Virus record (IMG/VR): IMGVR_UViG_2531839622_000028
Length of the DNA stretch: 39,198 nucleotides
Origin: a virus
Lineage: Duplodnaviria > Heunggongvirae > Uroviricota > Caudoviricetes
Direction: 5' to 3' (one strand)
Shown here one piece after another: positions 2,607 to 39,198 of the stretch. Position numbers and translations under genes: made by a program. The notes beneath the pieces are model-generated. The model was not told the DNA's origin. It made no database searches and was given only the letters and a program-made list of their open reading frames with translations. The stretch's first letter is position 1; the number at the start of each line of letters is the position of its first letter.

Positions 2607-2641
2607 GAATATTCTCCTTTCCTTTTCTGGTTCACAAAAAA

Positions 2642-2821
2642 TTAAATCTGACCGGAGTCTTTCGGCTGCGGCATTACAGCACCGCTTTTTATCTTTTCCT
2701 CGGCAGCTGCATCAATTTTATTTCGAAAATAATTGCGAATAATTTTATAACCACCGCTGACAAGCAACAGACAACAAACCACCGTGCAGAAATACAGCAG
2801 GCAGACGTTTATATATGTCAT
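2642..2821 (-). CDS. Small membrane protein (59 aa), hypothetical
   Basis: Not in the ORF track (below its size cut-off); ATG at 2819-2821 with GAGG 5 nt upstream; translation MTYINVCLLYFCTVVCCLLLVSGGYKIIRNYF... has one N-terminal hydrophobic helix and a charged tail. Confidence 0.4.
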   Translation of the reverse strand: MTYINVCLLYFCTVVCCLLLVSGGYKIIRNYFRNKIDAAAEEKIKSGAVMPQPKDSGQI

Positions 2822-2878
2822 ATAAGCCTCACTCTTATTAACTGATGTTACAGCCGGATAAATTCCCGGCCGTCACGA

Positions 2879-4927
2879 TTATGCCGCAGGGGTATTAACC
2901 TCAAGGACAACGCTCTCAAAAGACACGCCATAAGTTGCCCCTTTGGTGACATCTGTCAGTGTCAGCGTATCTTTGGCAGGGGAAAGTGCATCTTTCACCA
3001 TCTGGAATGCCTGGCCCGGAGTGCCATCCAGCACAGGCGTTACCTGGGCACTTCCCGCCGTAAACTTCAGGACAAGTGTATGCCACTGGTTATTGTAGGC
3101 TCCAAATGATCCCAGTTTCGTATTCCCCCCTGTTTTATGGTGCATCAGATTTAACTGGCCGCCTGTTGTCTGGAGATAATACGCCATCAGGAACGGTGTG
3201 CCTGTACCACTCATGGTTACACCTTCCGGGACCGTATCGGTGTGGAGGTAAATACCCAGAGCAAACTGGCCTTCTTTTACTTCACCTGACAGACGGAATT
3301 TACAGGTCAACTGACCACCATGCTTCAGAAGTTCACCGGCTGCATCAGTTCCATGGGTAAGCGTCCAGGTTTTTCCGCTTTGTTTGGATACGGTCAACGC
3401 TTTACCTTCGTCCGTCAGCTGGATTGTACCATCTGTAATTTTCCAGCCCTGAGCCGGGGCTTCTCCTGCTGATGCTTTAAGTGAAAGCAGCGTACGGAGT
3501 GACGGGGATGTCGGATGGGGGGACTCACTGCCTCCTGGCTGACTACCTGTCGGCGCTTCCGGTTTCCCACCCGGCGCGGGCTGAGGCAGGGCTTCACCAT
3601 CAGGGGCCACACCGGCAATAAATGCAGAGGTCAGACCTGCATATTTAAGAATTGCTGATGCAAAACGATCTGAGACCAGAAAACGGCGCGCCCAGGAGCT
3701 AAAATGGGTTGCCCTGGATGCTGTTGTCCAGTTGCCATCTCCCCGTGATTCCGCACCATAATACCCGGCAGAAGCGATATCCGGGTCGTGCTCCGGCAGG
3801 TTGGTCGCGGTTTTATTACCGAACTCATCGTGCATCAGTGGAACAAAGTGAATGTTCTCGGAAGCCCGGTTTTTATATCCGCTATAAATGGTTTCATATG
3901 CCGCCGGGTTCTTCTCTTTCCAGTCATAGGTTGTGTCACCACATAACCACGGCACACTGTCTGATGAACCACCAATACACTGACCGGAGAAAGCACCAAG
4001 ATCCGCACGGAATTTTTTCACCATCGCAGTAAACTGGGCACCATGCTGGGCCGGGGTCGCTTTAAGGTCTCCTTCCCCCTGAATCCATACGACAGATAAC
4101 AGCACATTCTTTGGATTCGCCTCAAGTGCCGCTTTAGTTCGACTGACAAGATCCTGATACAGTGGGGTATCCACTCCCCAGCGTAGTGACGCCTCGGCTG
4201 CACCACTTGCCGGATCGAATGAGCCAACTGCGCCGGTTGTAAAAGCAGAGCCGCCACGGGCACAGGGAACCAGTAAAATCCCGGCATCAGCAGGAATCAC
4301 CGGTAATACTTTTTTCGCAATATGAAGTCCCTGCCCCACACAACCATACTGCCCTTTTTTCAGGTCTGCTTTTGGATGGTTCAGCAGACTCATATTCTGA
4401 ACATCATGAAGGCAGTGATCTGCTGGAATGATTTCATTGTATTTGCAGGGAATACCTCCGGGGGTTTGTGTATTCCTGCGTGCCAGCTGCATAATACGTG
4501 GATCAGGACGATCATAAGAATCCGGAAGGGGCAACCCTTCACCATAAGATGAAGCATTGGACTGGCCGGCTATAACAATCACGTAATACCAGGAAGGGGA
4601 GCTGGAAGCCGTTTCATTTCCTGCCGGACGGGTATGTGTTTCTGCATTATCCCAGTCTGACGGTTCAGTAGTACCGGCAACATCAGCACTTAACGGAATG
4701 ACAGCACCAATACCCGCTCCGGTAATTTCCACGTTCGGATCACCGGATACTGGCCTTACCCACAGGCAATCCTGTGTATTAAAACTGATGAGACAGTCAG
4801 CAAATGTCATTCCTCCTTTTGTTTCGGCCGGAGGAAAGGGAGCCTCAAGAAATGCCGCTGTACCACCGGAAACTTTAACAGTAAAGTTTCCGGGCATTGA
4901 TGATAGTTGAACCCATTTGGACGTCAT
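2879..4927 (-). CDS. Modular carbohydrate esterase, SASA/SGNH type, resembling prophage-encoded sialate O-acetylesterases (NanS-p-like), with a C-terminal beta-rich putative sugar-binding domain
   Basis: 682-aa ORF; GQSN motif at residues 121-124 (nt 4556-4567) and a W-x-QGE-x-D block (VVWIQGEGD) typical of the SASA family; Pro/Gly-rich linker then about 180 C-terminal residues; no N-terminal signal peptide visible. Confidence 0.6.
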   Translation of the reverse strand: MTSKWVQLSSMPGNFTVKVSGGTAAFLEAPFPPAETKGGMTFADCLISFNTQDCLWVRPVSGDPNVEITGAGIGAVIPLSADVAGTTEPSDWDNAETHTRPAGNETASSSPSWYYVIVIAGQSNASSYGEGLPLPDSYDRPDPRIMQLARRNTQTPGGIPCKYNEIIPADHCLHDVQNMSLLNHPKADLKKGQYGCVGQGLHIAKKVLPVIPADAGILLVPCARGGSAFTTGAVGSFDPASGAAEASLRWGVDTPLYQDLVSRTKAALEANPKNVLLSVVWIQGEGDLKATPAQHGAQFTAMVKKFRADLGAFSGQCIGGSSDSVPWLCGDTTYDWKEKNPAAYETIYSGYKNRASENIHFVPLMHDEFGNKTATNLPEHDPDIASAGYYGAESRGDGNWTTASRATHFSSWARRFLVSDRFASAILKYAGLTSAFIAGVAPDGEALPQPAPGGKPEAPTGSQPGGSESPHPTSPSLRTLLSLKASAGEAPAQGWKITDGTIQLTDEGKALTVSKQSGKTWTLTHGTDAAGELLKHGGQLTCKFRLSGEVKEGQFALGIYLHTDTVPEGVTMSGTGTPFLMAYYLQTTGGQLNLMHHKTGGNTKLGSFGAYNNQWHTLVLKFTAGSAQVTPVLDGTPGQAFQMVKDALSPAKDTLTLTDVTKGATYGVSFESVVLEVNTPAA

Positions 4928-5026: not shown

Positions 5027-5587
5027 TTATTTTTCCGAAACGCTCGCAGGATAATAACGATAAAGGGTTGAAAGACCGATATCAAAAATAAGTGCCACCT
5101 GTCTTCGACTGACACCCCCGGCCAGTAAACGCCCGACCTGCTCGTATTGTTCCTGCGTGAGACGGCGGGGTCTGCCGCCGGTTCGTCCCCTTTCACGGGC
5201 AGCTGCAAGACCAGCCCGTGTCCGTTCGACAATTAATTCACGCTCCATTTCTGCCAGCGCACCCATTATGTGAAAAAAGAAACGCCCCATGGGGGTTGAC
5301 GTATCAATGTTGTCAGTAAGACTACGAAAATTTATCCCCTGTTGCTGTAATTCATCTGTCAGCGCAACAAGGTGGCGCATACTGCGCCCCAGCCTGTCCA
5401 GTTTCCAGACCATCAGTGTGTCACCGGGTTTTAGTTTCTTCAGTGCCCGCTTCAGTCCCGGCCGCTGTGTCGTTTTACCACTCATTTTGTCTTCAAAAAT
5501 CTGCTCACATCCTGCACATTCCAGCGCATTTCTTTGTAAACCGGTGTTCTGGTCATTTGTTGATACGCGTATATAGCCAATCAGCAT
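5027..5587 (-). CDS. gin: Gin/Hin/Cin-family serine DNA invertase
   Basis: 186-aa ORF; N-terminus MLIGYIRVSTNDQNTGLQRNAL... and C-terminal HTH match the Gin/Hin family; adjacent to a gix-like site and the tail-fibre cassettes. Confidence 0.9.
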   Translation of the reverse strand: MLIGYIRVSTNDQNTGLQRNALECAGCEQIFEDKMSGKTTQRPGLKRALKKLKPGDTLMVWKLDRLGRSMRHLVALTDELQQQGINFRSLTDNIDTSTPMGRFFFHIMGALAEMERELIVERTRAGLAAARERGRTGGRPRRLTQEQYEQVGRLLAGGVSRRQVALIFDIGLSTLYRYYPASVSEK

Positions 5588-5640: not shown

Positions 5641-5670
5641 TATCCCTGAAAACCTCGGTTTACGGGAAAC
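5641..5670. other. gix-like recombination site, gin-proximal
   Basis: TATCCCTGAAAACC-TC-GGTTTACGGGAAAC resembles the Mu gix sequence as recalled; the GGTTTACGGGAAAC half-site recurs inverted at 7016-7029. Confidence 0.55.
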
Positions 5671-6013
5671 GGTAAATAAGGCGGCGAATGCCCTGCCATC
5701 GAACGGAACGGCTGTTGCAGCGAATAAACTCGCCACTCCAAGAAATATTAATGGTGTCCCATTTGACGGAACGCAGGATATAAATATTACATCGGGGATG
5801 ACGCAGTCTGTGGCTGACTCACGTTATGTTCAAAGCATTCGAAGAGGTTCAAGGTCAACGATTGGAATGCAATATAATATTTTTGAAGTTCCTGACGGAT
5901 GCGTACTTACAGGGCTTGATGTCGCTGGTGATGGTAATGCAACGGTAACCGCATATTATCGACCTGTTCAGTTTCTGATAGATGGTTCGTGGAAAACAGC
6001 TTCCAGCGCATAA
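5657..6013 (+). CDS. Alternative tail-fibre C-terminal cassette (Sv'-like), no start codon of its own; expressed only after inversion
   Basis: Open frame from the gix crossover encodes GLRETVNKAANALPSNGTAVAANKLATPRNINGVPFDGTQDINITSGMTQ..., near-identical to the corresponding stretch of the expressed fibre, then a divergent C-terminus. Confidence 0.55.
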   Translation, partial: GLRETVNKAANALPSNGTAVAANKLATPRNINGVPFDGTQDINITSGMTQSVADSRYVQSIRRGSRSTIGMQYNIFEVPDGCVLTGLDVAGDGNATVTAYYRPVQFLIDGSWKTASSA

Positions 6014-6092
6014 AAGTGCAGTAGTTCAAAAAACAGATTATCTGAATAAATATATGATGATTTTGTCTTTTCAACAAAAACAAGGTGAAATA

Positions 6093-6614
6093 ATGGAGCT
6101 TATTAACGTAAAACGATATTACCCGGAACACAAACCCTATGGTGAGGATGTTCAGTATTTCCAGAGTGAGGACGGAAGGGATTTTTATGAATCTATCCCG
6201 CTTTTCACAAAGAAATACAAACTCTGTATTTCGCCTGTAACGGGTATTATCTGCTCTGTTGCTGAAGATGTCTCTGCTTTATATCCGGCAGGTTTTACTG
6301 TTGTTGAAGTGGACGAACTGCCGGAAGGTGTGAATATTGACGGTAACTGGCAGTTTTCTGATGGCCTGATATCAAAGGTGCCGGTAAACTGGAAGACGGT
6401 TGCTGAAAAGCGTCGTTCATCGCTGCTCCAGGAAGCCAACGAAACCGTGGATGACTGGAAAACAGAATTAAAACTGGACATGATTAGCGATGAAAATAAA
6501 TTACAGCTGACGCGCTGGATGGCGTATATCCGACAGCTTAAAGAAATGCACTTTAATGATATTGCCAGTGAGGGGCATTACCAGGCGATTCCCTGGCCGG
6601 AAAAACCGGAATAA
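6093..6614 (+). CDS. Tail-fibre assembly protein (U'/Tfa-like chaperone)
   Basis: Start taken at the ATG at 6093 (MELINVKRYYPEH...) with GGTGA upstream; typical Tfa-like N-terminus; immediately follows the Sv' cassette; ORF track gives a longer 5982 start. Confidence 0.7.
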   Translation: MELINVKRYYPEHKPYGEDVQYFQSEDGRDFYESIPLFTKKYKLCISPVTGIICSVAEDVSALYPAGFTVVEVDELPEGVNIDGNWQFSDGLISKVPVNWKTVAEKRRSSLLQEANETVDDWKTELKLDMISDENKLQLTRWMAYIRQLKEMHFNDIASEGHYQAIPWPEKPE

Positions 6615-6620
6615 TTCAGA

Positions 6621-6641
6621 GGGTGCATTCAGCACCCTTTT
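6621..6641 (+). terminator. Rho-independent terminator-like hairpin GGGTGC-ATTCA-GCACCC followed by TTTT
   Basis: Read directly, 7 nt after the U' stop, between the convergent U' and fibre genes. Confidence 0.5.
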
Positions 6642-6648
6642 CTGTGGT

Positions 6649-7560
6649 TTACACTGAACTTACCGTTCTCCAGGCATTATTAATATAAATCTGAACCGGG
6701 CGATAATAGACCCCACCGATATTGTCCGCAGACCGGGAGCCGGTTTCCTGCACGTTAATACCGGAAAGCATACAACCGGAAGGTGCGCTGTAATTCCATG
6801 ATATTTCATTGCCTCCGGGTGAATGATAGCTCTGTGCTCCAAGCTGAACATTCTGTACATACCGGCCATCTGCGGTTGACTGCGTCATTCCTGACGTGAT
6901 GTTGATATCCTGCGTTCCGTCAAAAGGAACGCCATTAATATTTCTTGGGGTGGCGAGTCTGTTTGCTGCCACGGCGGTTCCACCCGATGGCAGGGCATCA
7001 GCAGCCTTATTTACCGTTTCCCGTAAACCGACGTTATCGATAAAAGCGCCTTTATCCGGAATGTCTGCGCCGTTCTGCTCCCTGCGCAGGTAACGGTTAT
7101 CACCTTCGCTTTTGCTGTAAACATCCAGATTATTACGGGCGGTTCCCGCATTCTCCAGGTCGGCAAGGTTCTGATCCTTCGCCAGAGCATTAACGTCACC
7201 GGGACCAAGACTGTTTTTTGTGGCAAGCGCCCCAAGACCAAGATAACCACGGGCAAGACGCTGGGCTTCCGCACCGGCATCAGCAATTTCTTTCAGGTTG
7301 TTTTTCCGGGAAAAGGCATTCGCAGCGATAATGGCTTTAATGGACAGCGTAAGCTGGTTTAACTGCGCCTTATCCGGCTGAATACTGGCTTCAGCCAGAA
7401 TATTCAGCAGTTCGGCCTGGAGAATATTCAGCCAGTCCTGACCAATCCAGCTGATACCTTTTTGTCCGTCACCTTCGGTAAACCAGGTGGTGGTATTACT
7501 CTGCGCCGGTGCCAGCGCAGGCATATTCGCCACGCCGGAATTATTATCAACATGAAACAT
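6649..7560 (-). CDS. Tail-fibre protein (S-like; constant N-terminal part joined to the currently in-frame variable C-terminal part)
   Basis: 303-aa ORF downstream of baseplate genes; C-terminal third lies inside the invertible segment and is paralogous to the Sv' cassette. Confidence 0.75.
   Translation of the reverse strand: MFHVDNNSGVANMPALAPAQSNTTTWFTEGDGQKGISWIGQDWLNILQAELLNILAEASIQPDKAQLNQLTLSIKAIIAANAFSRKNNLKEIADAGAEAQRLARGYLGLGALATKNSLGPGDVNALAKDQNLADLENAGTARNNLDVYSKSEGDNRYLRREQNGADIPDKGAFIDNVGLRETVNKAADALPSGGTAVAANRLATPRNINGVPFDGTQDINITSGMTQSTADGRYVQNVQLGAQSYHSPGGNEISWNYSAPSGCMLSGINVQETGSRSADNIGGVYYRPVQIYINNAWRTVSSV
7016..7043. other. gix-like recombination site, fibre-gene-proximal (inside the fibre coding sequence)
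   Basis: GTTTCCCGTAAACC-GA-CGTTATCGATAA; left half is the exact inverted copy of the half-site at 5657-5670. Confidence 0.5.
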
Positions 7561-36062: not shown

Positions 36063-38153
36063 TCAGGCCAGCGGGTCATTTTCTTTTAATTTCGCTTCCA
36101 GCAACTGCAATCCCCGCTGGAAATTACGCTCGTATTCTTCATCAGGTTCATCGTCAGCGACCGGTTGCTGAACGGTCACCGTATTACCCACAGGGCGGTA
36201 TATGTTTTCCAGCCAGGGCTCCTGCGGCTTGTGCTCCAGCACGTTGACAACCTCATCCTCGGCATCACGGATTTTTTCCTCTGCGCGTTTACGCATGCCT
36301 TTAAGGCGTTGCTGCTGTTTGTAGTATTCCGCGCTAACCGGGAAGGCTTCGCGTTTATTACCGTCCCATACCGCCTCGCAAATCACGCTGCCATCCAGGC
36401 GACGTACGGTAATTCGTTCGGCATCATGAATGTCATAGCTGATAAGCACCTTACGACCATGCTCGTCACGCAGCTCGGGCGCGTAGTAAATATTATTCAG
36501 CCAGCGTATTTCACAGCGTCTTACAGGGCGTTCCACCATCGGCCGGAACATATCCCGCAGCTCAACATCGGACAGCCATTCAATTTCCGTGTCCTCTTCC
36601 GCCAGGCGTTTTTTTCTGAACTCCGCCGGGCTGTAATGCTTGCCGTTCGGCTTCACCGGTAATTCATCGTGCGGCCGGTTGTTGTACCACTCAACACCGT
36701 CACGAATGGCATCAATCAGTTCAGACCAGGACGGTAAATCACGCATCGCTGACTGCTGCCGGGCGTTCAGCCGTTTGCCCTGTTGCAGGGCAGTAAATGC
36801 CGAGCGTAAATCGCGGTTGGTTTTGCGTAACGTCTCGCGATCTGCACCTTTCCCGAAATAGGTGCGGTATTTACGGGCTATGCGCATCGGTAATGTGCGG
36901 TTAAGCCGTTCGATAATGCCTCGTCCCTGCGGATTACCGGCAATCCCGGTCGGGTGATTAATCCCCAGTCGCGGCAGTATCCCCACAACCTCCTTATCCA
37001 GGATGTCGGCGGTTTCCCCGGAGCCGTTATCCGAGTAATACAGAAACGGTTTGCCGTGATGGCGAATGCCGTGCTGTATGGCACCGGCTACGGCGAAAAC
37101 ATTTTCAGCCAGGTCAAGGCTCCAGCCCACCACAAAGCGCGTGCCACCGTCGATAACAAAGGTCACTTCCGGTGCAAATGGCCGACCGTGAACCGGGTGT
37201 GCGCATTTCAGCTTCATGCCGTGACCGTCACCAATCCAGACATAATTCACCGGCATTCTGGACCAGTCGCGGCGCGTGAATCCCTCAAGCTGGCGGTATT
37301 CACTGCCGGTCACCCGGCCTTTTTGTTTCACCACTTCCGGCAGTTTCTTCATTGCGCGGCGAATGGTGTCATAAGACGGCATGATATCGAGCATATAAGG
37401 CTCATCAGCGTGCCGGTGCTGCCATTCAGCGACAAAATCCTCGTAAGCCTCGGTCATTGGTCGGCCGTTTGACTGGCGATACTGCGCCAGAAATTCGGGC
37501 AGCCAGTTAATATCTTCGGCTTTTATTTCCTGGCGCTTACCCGGTGCCAGTAAAAGCAGGCGTTCAGCGGCGTTCTGCGCCTTGTTAAAGGCCGCAATCC
37601 AGCGTTTCAGCGTTATTTCACTCAACGCACGGCTGTTTCCCTTTTTGGCGTTCGCCGTCTCAACCATTGCCACAATGCGCTCGTCCAGTTGCGAACGTGC
37701 CAGGTTGTCAACGATAAACCGGATAGCTTTCGCACAGCTGAAACCGGGTTGTTGCGCGACTTTCATCACTTCGCTGACGATCGCAATTCGTGCATCAGCC
37801 ACCTGGCGCTGGTTTTCAGTCAGGGCATTAAGGCGTTCAACCATCAGTTGTGGTGATCCGCGATATGCCTCCACCGCATCAACCACGGCAGGCGAGCGTC
37901 TGGCCTTTGTCACCACCGGAGCCGGTGATTCATCAGCTTTTTGCGTCATCAGTTGAAGGGCATAACGTTCACGCAATACTTGTTGCGCGCCAGAAGGCAA
38001 ACAATCGATATTAAATTCGATTGCTTTTGTCCCCTTACGTTTGCGTAACATGGCTGCATTTCCCGCAGCTGCTTTTGTGAGTCGATGGCGAATGTTATGT
38101 TCCATCATTGGTAAATCAGGAAGACCAACACATTCTTTTGCTGTTACCCACAT
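36063..38153 (-). CDS. A: DDE transposase (MuA-like)
   Basis: 696-aa ORF; N-terminus MWVTAKECVGLPDLP... resembles the MuA DNA-binding domain as recalled; acidic C-terminal tail; follows ner. Confidence 0.9.
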   Translation of the reverse strand: MWVTAKECVGLPDLPMMEHNIRHRLTKAAAGNAAMLRKRKGTKAIEFNIDCLPSGAQQVLRERYALQLMTQKADESPAPVVTKARRSPAVVDAVEAYRGSPQLMVERLNALTENQRQVADARIAIVSEVMKVAQQPGFSCAKAIRFIVDNLARSQLDERIVAMVETANAKKGNSRALSEITLKRWIAAFNKAQNAAERLLLLAPGKRQEIKAEDINWLPEFLAQYRQSNGRPMTEAYEDFVAEWQHRHADEPYMLDIMPSYDTIRRAMKKLPEVVKQKGRVTGSEYRQLEGFTRRDWSRMPVNYVWIGDGHGMKLKCAHPVHGRPFAPEVTFVIDGGTRFVVGWSLDLAENVFAVAGAIQHGIRHHGKPFLYYSDNGSGETADILDKEVVGILPRLGINHPTGIAGNPQGRGIIERLNRTLPMRIARKYRTYFGKGADRETLRKTNRDLRSAFTALQQGKRLNARQQSAMRDLPSWSELIDAIRDGVEWYNNRPHDELPVKPNGKHYSPAEFRKKRLAEEDTEIEWLSDVELRDMFRPMVERPVRRCEIRWLNNIYYAPELRDEHGRKVLISYDIHDAERITVRRLDGSVICEAVWDGNKREAFPVSAEYYKQQQRLKGMRKRAEEKIRDAEDEVVNVLEHKPQEPWLENIYRPVGNTVTVQQPVADDEPDEEYERNFQRGLQLLEAKLKENDPLA

Positions 38154-38163
38154 ACATCCCCCA

Positions 38164-38430
38164 TCAAGCCACTTCTCTGGCGTCCACCTGGTATCTGCTG
38201 GGCCAGATTACAGCAGGTTCAACCCCTATTTTTTCGGCGATGGCGGCTTCGTATTTACGGCACTGGCGGTAAAACACATTGCGCATTGATCCGCTTTTTA
38301 ATCCTAACTCCCTTTCCAGTTCAGGGAGGTCTGTGCCTTTGTTTTCAAGGGCTGCATATACCGCTTTAGCAGACCAGTCACACCCCTCTCGAACAAACAA
38401 ATTATTCGATGCTTGTCTGGATACCCTCAT
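38164..38430 (-). CDS. ner: Ner-like DNA-binding protein (Nlp/Ner family)
   Basis: 88-aa ORF; C-terminal VIWPSRYQ motif and HTH region match Ner; GAGAGGA upstream; first gene of the early operon. Confidence 0.8.
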   Translation of the reverse strand: MRVSRQASNNLFVREGCDWSAKAVYAALENKGTDLPELERELGLKSGSMRNVFYRQCRKYEAAIAEKIGVEPAVIWPSRYQVDAREVA

Positions 38431-38586
38431 TGTGTGATCCTCTCATGTTTACCTGAACCGATAATCAAAACCGGTTATCGATTTAGGTAAATCATAATCG
38501 CAAAATAATTCGATATCAACGGTTTTTTGCGAGCATATCGAAATTAAATGCGATGTCGATAATTTCTTTGTTTTATAGGGGGTTAT
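38431..38586. promoter_or_regulatory. Divergent immunity/early control region with repeated CGATA-core operator-like motifs
   Basis: AT-rich spacer between divergent ner and repressor genes; CGATAA/TATCGA-type motifs at about 38459, 38476, 38511, 38536 and 38556. Confidence 0.5.
38491..38519 (-). promoter_or_regulatory. Candidate early promoter (Pe-like): -35 TTGATA, 17-bp spacer, -10 TATGAT on the minus strand
   Basis: Hexamers read on the reverse complement (-35 at 38519-38514, -10 at 38496-38491); about 50 nt upstream of the ner RBS; overlaps the operator-like repeats. Confidence 0.35.
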
Positions 38587-39198
38587 ATGGATAAGGCAGA
38601 AAAAACCGTATCCAGTGCGGAACGGTTTATTGATATGGAAGGAATAAACCGATTTTCAGAACGCTTAGCTATGGCTATGGGAAACATGACAAACGTCGAA
38701 CTGGCGACCCTTTGTGGACTATCTGAAGCCACAGTAAGAAATTACAGGAAGGGGAAAAACTTCCCTCCTTTGGATAAACTGGCCTTAATAGCTAAAGCCT
38801 GTAATTGTTCACTCGAATGGTTGGCCACAGGCAAGAACGAAGATGAATGCGGAAAAATCGAAAACAATTGCGATTCAGGTTCGGGTATTGATCAGGCGCT
38901 TAGCTCTCTAAGCCCCCAAGAGAAGCAATTAATCCTTACATTCATCAGGCGAGAAGGTACTAATAACCTTGTCAGGCTGGCAGCAATGAATACATCTACA
39001 ATCAGCCAGGATGCGGTAGAAAGCATCATTGATGCCTTGCCATTACGTCCCGTACTAAAAAATGCAATAAAGATAGGAATGGCGGGAAGTGAAGAAACAG
39101 ACAAAGAGATTTTGCGCGTTATTGAGAAGTACAACTCGAGCAATAACGCCACCCAGGAATCAGGGGCAGTGACAGTAAAGAAAAATGTTGTTGGTTAA
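38587..39198 (+). CDS. Prophage repressor with N-terminal XRE/Cro-C1-type HTH
   Basis: 203-aa ORF divergent from ner; HTH NVELATLCGLSEATVRNYRKGKNFPPLDKLALIAKACNCSLEWLATG; AGGGGG RBS; no obvious S24 peptidase motif. Confidence 0.75.
   Translation: MDKAEKTVSSAERFIDMEGINRFSERLAMAMGNMTNVELATLCGLSEATVRNYRKGKNFPPLDKLALIAKACNCSLEWLATGKNEDECGKIENNCDSGSGIDQALSSLSPQEKQLILTFIRREGTNNLVRLAAMNTSTISQDAVESIIDALPLRPVLKNAIKIGMAGSEETDKEILRVIEKYNSSNNATQESGAVTVKKNVVG

Follow-up and report, generated by a model that had tools for sequence, protein, structure and literature searches.

A Gin-invertible tail fibre segment with a single assembly gene, conserved in Mu-like prophages related to Sp18 of Escherichia coli O157:H7

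Background

Phages Mu and P1 carry two fibre-chaperone pairs each, and in P1 (invertase Cin) and e14 (invertase Pin) a serine invertase adjoins an invertible segment that encodes alternative fibre C-termini. In Mu this is the G segment (S-U / U'-S'), whose chaperone TfaMu, at the fibre tip, helps to bind lipopolysaccharide. The P2-like phage Fels-2 also has a serine invertase beside an invertible segment with alternative fibre C-termini, and its two tail fibre assembly (tfa) genes stand back to back; the records of P1, SfMu and Yersinia phage vB_YpM_44 give two tfa matches each. The segment described here has one. It lies in the IMG/VR record IMGVR_UViG_2531839622_000028, a stretch of 39,198 nucleotides that was analysed as a whole (the window) and that is a complete Mu-like prophage with every late gene on the minus strand. 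The segment is a real and active Gin switch of a known prophage in which it had already been annotated, its one-chaperone architecture is conserved, and this architecture is probably functional in both orientations.

The known prophage is Sp18 of E. coli O157:H7 Sakai, with which the window is colinear over 726-37987 at 97.5-98.8% identity. Based on this comparison the element is best classed as an Sp18-type Mu-like prophage of Shiga-toxin-producing E. coli (STEC). The Sakai counterparts of the genes considered below are ECs_4989 (fibre), ECs_4990 (Tfa), ECs_4991 (partial fibre) and ECs_4992 (DNA invertase), and Sakai Sp18 shares both the gene order and the segment orientation of the window. 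An invertible host-specificity region in Sp18, with genes distinct from those of Mu and a host-specificity function scored as atypical, was described as early as 2009 (PMC2669165). In the searchable literature on Sp18 we found no discussion of the single chaperone.

Results and Discussion

Inversion in natural genomes

The fibre gene consists of a constant 5' part, Sc, which lies outside the segment, and a variable C-terminal cassette, which in the present orientation is Sv (Table 1). Flipping 5655-7031 in silico carries Sc in frame into the alternative cassette, Sv', and gives a 295-aa fibre, S', followed by tfa on the same strand. Both joins of Sc are in frame (303 and 295 aa), which is the constant/variable fibre split of the Mu and P1 type. 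Five complete E. coli genomes contain the flipped 2801-nt sequence made in this way at 100.0% identity, so that recombination precisely at the predicted core does occur in nature, and it has been too recent for any substitution to accumulate. The annotation of one flipped genome contains the expected 295-aa fibre with tfa downstream. Among the complete E. coli genomes in which the match covers at least 80% of the query, 183 carry the window (Sv) orientation and 27 the flipped one, and the IMG/VR contigs with the one-Tfa layout include 14 in which tfa is antisense to S and 5 in which it is co-oriented. Both orientations were found in each of three lineages, with the Sv orientation the commoner in all three.

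Strains 8479 and Z869 contain one copy of each orientation. In strain 8479, prophage copies that are 100% identical lie on the chromosome (NZ_CP074994) and on the 166-kb record NZ_CP074995 with their segments in opposite orientations, while the two copies in strain Z869, one per orientation, are 100% and 99.4% identical to the window, and the 2.8-kb query matches six places in that strain. These copies point to recent transposition as well as inversion.

The invertase is intact, shares 76% identity with Mu Gin over 181 aa and has Ser9 in MLIGYIRVSTNDQ. The inverted repeat around the segment has arms of 185 nt that are 81% complementary, with 26 nt identical at the ends, and at the outer repeat ends are two inverted 26-bp gix-type sites, both with a central TC. 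The site on the gin side reads TCCCTGAAAACC-TC-GGTTTACGGGAA and the reverse complement of the site on the Sc side reads TTATCGATAACG-TC-GGTTTACGGGAA. The two inner half-sites are thus identical and inversion regenerates the same sites, so that no intrinsic bias would be expected and the equilibrium should lie near 1:1. A scan of the whole window with the gix core returned just these two sites at two or fewer mismatches and no further gix sites able to flip tfa alone. With a small serine recombinase, two inverted 26-bp sites and both orientations found, this is a Gin-type inversion system; having two crossover sites and two cassettes only, it is not a multiple-inversion system of the Min (p15B) or shufflon type. 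A Gin-type fibre segment is what the original prediction had proposed, and its call for detection of both orientations is answered by the complete genomes. The gix-like sites, which match Mu gixL and gixR, and the approximate 1.4-kb length that it gave are borne out as well, while the part that is exchanged has to be corrected to 5655-7031, or 1377 bp.

A weaker gix-core-like match with 3 mismatches (GAACACCGGTTTAC) occurs at 5536-5549 on the minus strand, within the 5' end of gin, the region of the enhancer in Mu, and is probably not a crossover site. Inversion systems of the Gin type have a Fis-dependent recombinational enhancer in the 5' part of the invertase gene; the 5' region of the window gin has high DNA identity to Mu gin, which may reflect coding constraint only.

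Table 1. Coordinates of the fibre segment and adjoining features in the window, counted from its first nucleotide
Feature	Position	Strand	Remarks
SASA (sialate-O-acetylesterase-like) + DUF6645 protein, 682 aa	2879-4927	-	directly downstream of gin; phrog_143, unknown function
Gin-type serine DNA invertase, 186 aa	5027-5587	-	PF00239 (E 1e-51) and PF02796 HTH
gix-type crossover site, gin side	5643-5668		central TC 5655-5656; aligns with Mu gixR; exact core match
Inverted-repeat arm, Sv'/gin side	5648-5832		81% complementary to the other arm
Sv' cassette, alternative C-terminus	5657-6013	+	start-less, silent in the present orientation; closest tip: Hafnia phage yong1
Spacer, Sv' stop to tfa start, 79 nt	6014-6092	+	75% A+T; sequence not conserved between lineages
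tfa, tail fibre assembly gene, 173 aa	6093-6614	+	PF02413 (Caudo_TAP) E 2e-18; phrog_136; Mu U
Hairpin AGGGTGC-N-GCACCCT and T-run	6618-6640	+	between the convergent tfa and S stops; kept in three diverged lineages
Fibre gene S, 303 aa, present orientation	6649-7560	-	residues 1-191 match Mu tail fibre S (5yvq_A, E 1e-48)
Sv cassette, fibre C-terminus in the present orientation	6649-7031	-	Mu-S-type tip; residues 228-302 align with Mu S 434-503
Inverted-repeat arm, Sv side	6854-7038		185 nt, complementary to 5648-5832
gix-type crossover site, Sc side	7018-7043		central dinucleotide 7030-7031; aligns with Mu gixL
Sc, constant 5' part of S, residues 1-176	7032-7560	-	outside the segment; Mu S match

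Comparison with the G segment of Mu

In addition to the related invertase, the window shares with Mu homologous gix sites with the same central TC, a homologous Sc, a crossover at the same place in the fibre gene, a gin gene that adjoins the segment, and tips of the Mu S/S' family. The differences lie in the segment itself, which is 1.4 kb long as opposed to 3 kb in Mu and has cassettes of about 125 aa as opposed to about 330 aa. Its 185-nt repeat arms with 81% identity compare with repeats of 34 bp in Mu and SfMu (PMC4406740). Mu has two Tfas, whereas the window has one, which is antisense to the fibre gene in one orientation, and tfa is preceded by a gap of 79 nt in the window and of 2 nt in Mu.

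Two cassettes and one Tfa

Both tips belong, by alignment, to the Mu-S tip family. Over the first 60 codons of the Sv and Sv' cassettes, 26 of the 35 differences fall at third positions, and the ratio of non-synonymous to synonymous substitution rates (dN/dS) is 0.07; codon 1 in this comparison takes in one base outside the segment, and its removal leaves 34 differences and 5 non-synonymous codons. The pattern is that of functional coding sequence under purifying selection in both cassettes. The original prediction had argued from near-identical cassette starts of about 140 nt for two functional cassettes and not a decayed copy. That conclusion holds, with the value of 0.07 between the cassettes and one of 0.058 for Sv against lineage L040 (see below), and so does the excess of third-position differences, while the extent of the similarity is better described as 81% identity over 185 nt.

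The Tfa is a member of the Caudo_TAP family, scoring 67 bits with PF02413 (cut-off 22) and matching Mu U (5yvq_B) at E 2e-15. A hidden Markov model (HMM) made from about 90 Tfa sequences was run over all stop-to-stop open reading frames of the window and gave one match, this gene, at E 4e-85; the next best had an E value above 1, and no second Tfa was found in the 39 kb by this model. The interval 6014-6648 is too small for a second tfa. One Caudo_TAP gene is therefore present in the segment and in the window, in place of the two fibre-chaperone pairs of a Mu/P1-type segment. It sits where the two cassettes converge and runs antisense to the fibre gene as presently oriented, and it comes to lie downstream of the fibre gene on the same strand only when the segment is flipped, and then after a spacer. 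The gene models of the fibre, the alternative cassette and the Tfa, the count of one assembly gene and this dependence of the gene order on orientation all agree with what was first reported for the locus.

A hidden chaperone gene antisense to tfa and co-directional with Sv was considered and rejected, the open stretch there being 130 codons in the window and 67 codons in three other lineages.

Conservation of the one-Tfa layout

The one-Tfa layout is not particular to this prophage. It recurs in lineages in which the identity of Tfa to that of the window falls to 72% and 68%, with both orientations in each, and in 19 IMG/VR contigs with Gin 81-100% identical; the shared gene order is gp48, S, tfa (opposite strand), Sv', invertase, SASA/DUF6645. 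Alignment of the segments gives a mosaic in which Sv is kept at 80-100% nucleotide identity, while the Sv' tip and the spacer are swapped for unrelated sequence in two lineages. Between the window and lineage L040, Sv has a synonymous divergence (dS) of 0.75 and a dN of 0.043, for a dN/dS of 0.058. Sv' and tfa are likewise under purifying selection, and the synonymous divergence of tfa is saturated between lineages that keep the layout. A cassette unable to make a working fibre would not be maintained under purifying selection, suggesting that Sv is not such a cassette. On these alignments the single-chaperone layout is conserved and not decaying.

A profile search of a one-genome-per-species contig collection with the Tfa alignment returned only relatives at 40% identity or less. 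The tfa gene is itself mosaic: in contig L037 (4001-4522), where the Sv and Sv' cassettes are the same as those of the window, it combines the N-terminal half of the window gene with the C-terminal half found in L002 (4173-4694). In Candidatus Symbiopectobacterium endolongispinus, a degraded Mu-like prophage (L030:3926-8554) apparently has the order gin(-), cassette(+), tfa(+), fibre(-), gp48(-), with about 150 nt between tfa and an apparently frameshifted fibre gene and a Tfa just 28% identical; the one-Tfa layout may thus not be confined to E. coli.

Which tip the Tfa fits

TfaMu is required for the production of the Mu fibre and stays bound to its tip (PMC8174754), and according to a summary of its structure its variable N-terminal domain binds the fibre and its conserved C-terminal helices drive trimerisation (PMC9608196). 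The company kept by relatives of the window Tfa is informative in this regard. Outside the Sp18-type family the Sv tip is matched best by the fibre of phage Rac-SA53, and the gene right after that fibre is the best match to the window Tfa (53% identity, full length). The non-invertible Mu-like prophages L043-45 have, after an Sv-type tip, a Tfa with 57% identity to that of the window, and here as in Rac-SA53 the Tfa lies within 14 nt of the tip. When the window Tfa is aligned with these Sv-associated Tfas, identity is visibly highest in the N-terminal half, an assessment made by eye with no figure computed. Hafnia phage yong1 has the tip that matches Sv' best, and the Tfa after it is only 31% identical to that of the window. 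More widely, the window-type Tfa family sits with at least four different tips, including three different Sv' cassettes, and all the tips that it accompanies share Mu-type tip motifs. From these neighbourhoods the window Tfa looks broadly compatible with the Mu-type tip family, and it certainly does not appear specific to Sv'. The initial assignment of this gene as the U' partner of the alternative cassette is thus not upheld.

One relative has two chaperone genes. The IMG/VR contig L124 (250-4330) has a canonical two-Tfa segment with a window-type Tfa in the U' position, beside the cassette there, and a 65-aa open reading frame with a signal peptide lies between its two tfa genes. L124 may resemble the ancestor of the one-Tfa layout.

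A proposed single chaperone for two tips

We favour, with moderate confidence, the reading that the locus is a working host-range switch of the Sp18-type prophage in which one Tfa serves both tips and both orientations give infectious particles. Gin recombines the two inverted gix sites and flips the segment, joining Sc to Sv or to Sv', and the particles of the two orientations would differ in receptor specificity, with Sv as the conserved, E. coli-directed tip and Sv' as the exchangeable one. In the flipped state Sc, Sv' and tfa would be co-transcribed, and the transcript would end at the conserved hairpin, which is terminator-like for tfa. In the present orientation tfa would have to be made independently of the late fibre transcript, and the likeliest source would be a promoter that travels with tfa, in the long AT-rich spacer or at the end of Sv'. 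The excess of the Sv orientation fits lysogens that were founded by Sv-bearing particles, and the Sv orientation is probably infectious.

An independent start of tfa is plausible, since a long spacer is confined to the single-Tfa segments and the gene is preceded by a Shine-Dalgarno sequence of its own. The spacer ahead of tfa measures 51-121 nt with 55-78% A+T in every single-Tfa segment and is followed by a Shine-Dalgarno sequence, as compared with gaps of 0-14 nt in the adjacent fibre-tfa pairs of Rac-SA53, L043, L124, Mu and Fels-2. The candidate tfa promoter TTGACG-16-TATTAC in the Sv' repeat arm was rejected for its lack of conservation in L002 and L040. The C-dependent late-promoter motif of Mu was also sought; nothing recognisable as the Mu Pmom site (TTATgccccaATAA) lies upstream of the window com gene, so that no late-promoter motif could be derived.

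Several points weigh against a shared Tfa. The pairing of Tfa with tips is read from gene neighbourhoods, and chaperone sharing is not a given, for Mu retains two Tfas despite 56% identity between U and U'. Clonal descent within O157:H7 and the choice of a consensus orientation by assemblers confound the orientation counts. A scan for the sigma-70 consensus upstream of tfa gave no promoter, and the sequences of the spacer and of the inverted repeat upstream of tfa are not conserved between lineages; a position weight matrix scan did give one decent promoter-like site per Sv' tip, a post hoc result modestly above chance.

The alternative that best survives is that the Tfa is dedicated to Sv' and that the present orientation gives defective, chaperone-less fibres, either as an on/off switch of infectivity or as decay after the loss of U. 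The loss of U would be a plausible origin given L124, with its window-type Tfa as U', and the gene arrangement is suggestive, with tfa co-oriented with Sv' only and separated from Sv by the terminator-like hairpin, and with no tfa promoter demonstrated by the consensus scan or the conservation check. We nevertheless consider it rather unlikely, because Sv is the most conserved part of the segment, the layout persists at saturated synonymous divergence of tfa, the Sv orientation is the commoner in every lineage, and the nearest relatives of the Tfa go with Sv-type and not with Sv'-type tips. What the original prediction implied, namely that the present orientation lacks a usable chaperone, is not supported, on the same grounds: the layout and Sv (dN/dS 0.06) are conserved, and this orientation predominates by 183:27 and 14:5.

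It is also possible, though unlikely and not favoured by us, that the Sv tip folds without Tfa and that only Sv' needs the chaperone, in which case one co-transcribed Tfa would suffice. The gene arrangement fits this exactly, and some phage fibres do work without a chaperone, for example in Alteromonas phage A5 (PMC10579305). However, every Sv-type tip inspected outside the Sp18-type family (Rac-SA53, L043-45 and the CR3/CR8 phages) is directly followed by a Tfa, the window Tfa is most similar to the Tfas that accompany Sv, and the Sv tip aligns with the Mu S tip, which requires TfaMu (PMC8174754).

Supply of the chaperone in trans to the Sv orientation, by the Tfa genes of co-resident prophages, is very unlikely: STEC are polylysogenic with many Tfa genes, prophage-prophage complementation occurs in O157 Sakai (PMC2669165) and the window-type Tfa family pairs with diverse tips, yet most carrier genomes hold one tfa-like DNA sequence (median 1 place per genome, a count that does not exclude more distant Tfas) and a helper would not be dependable for a transposable phage that passes from one host to another. 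As most host genomes have a single match at the DNA level, a close paralogue of tfa was rejected as such a source.

Other single-chaperone modules and significance

Judging from two IMG/VR metagenomic contigs, each represented in one orientation, the one-chaperone design is not unique to the family of the window. In L114 (4180-5931) and L103 (3812-5931) a single Caudo_TAP gene lies between an expressed cassette and inverted cassettes, as in the window; L114 has one inverted alternative cassette without its own chaperone and L103 has two, for three cassettes in total. Their inverted repeats measure 200-240 nt and the adjacent Gin homologue is 75% identical. They differ from the window in their unrelated Collar-domain fibres, with tips ending in NYIVRA. 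Single-chaperone fibre modules could then be a distinct and recurrent design, found independently in these Collar-type contigs, with a promiscuous Tfa that is expressed in either orientation and serves whichever cassette enters the segment; alternatively, the orientation could toggle both the tip and the presence of Tfa, giving 'capped' and 'uncapped' fibres. We hold these broader proposals to be rather unlikely. If 'capped' and 'uncapped' fibres do exist, they would constitute a second layer of host-range control.

If one Tfa does serve both tips, together with the Sv' cassettes of the sister lineages, then chaperone specificity is looser than in the textbook picture of paired S-U and S'-U' genes. 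Looser specificity of this kind would be useful for the retargeting of phages, tailocins and pyocins by swaps of fibre tips. The layout also poses a testable question, namely how a chaperone gene that is antisense to the late operon is expressed. This transposable prophage is widespread in STEC and sometimes lies within Shiga toxin (Stx) phages, and the range of hosts that it infects therefore has an effect on gene flow between pathogens.

Distribution of the prophage and its variable regions

Of 5426 complete E. coli genomes about 200 carry an Sp18-type prophage, which is widespread in STEC, with near-identical copies in many STEC genomes and inside two Stx phages. In the latter, the same Mu-like phage is annotated within Stx2c- and Stx1a-converting phages (LC727881.1, 40291-43090; LC727895.1, 38016-40815). 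The Sv tip of these copies has only 84% protein identity, while Sv' (98.8%) and Tfa (98.3%) are nearly unchanged.

The window copy and Sakai Sp18 have different places of insertion and are unlike each other at the repressor end and over a portion of the SASA/DUF6645 gene. Positions 1-725 of the window match neither Sakai Sp18 nor its sorM flank, which places the window copy at another site in the chromosome, and the repressor-end region (37988-39198) is also unlike Sp18. The most divergent stretch relative to Sakai Sp18 is at about 2620-4125, within part of the SASA/DUF6645 gene. In Mu the interval from gin to com/mom, which this gene occupies in the window, is empty, and the protein was found in every lineage of the Sp18-type prophage family. 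It may be an enzyme that modifies a receptor or the O antigen, or else an additional protein of the tail.

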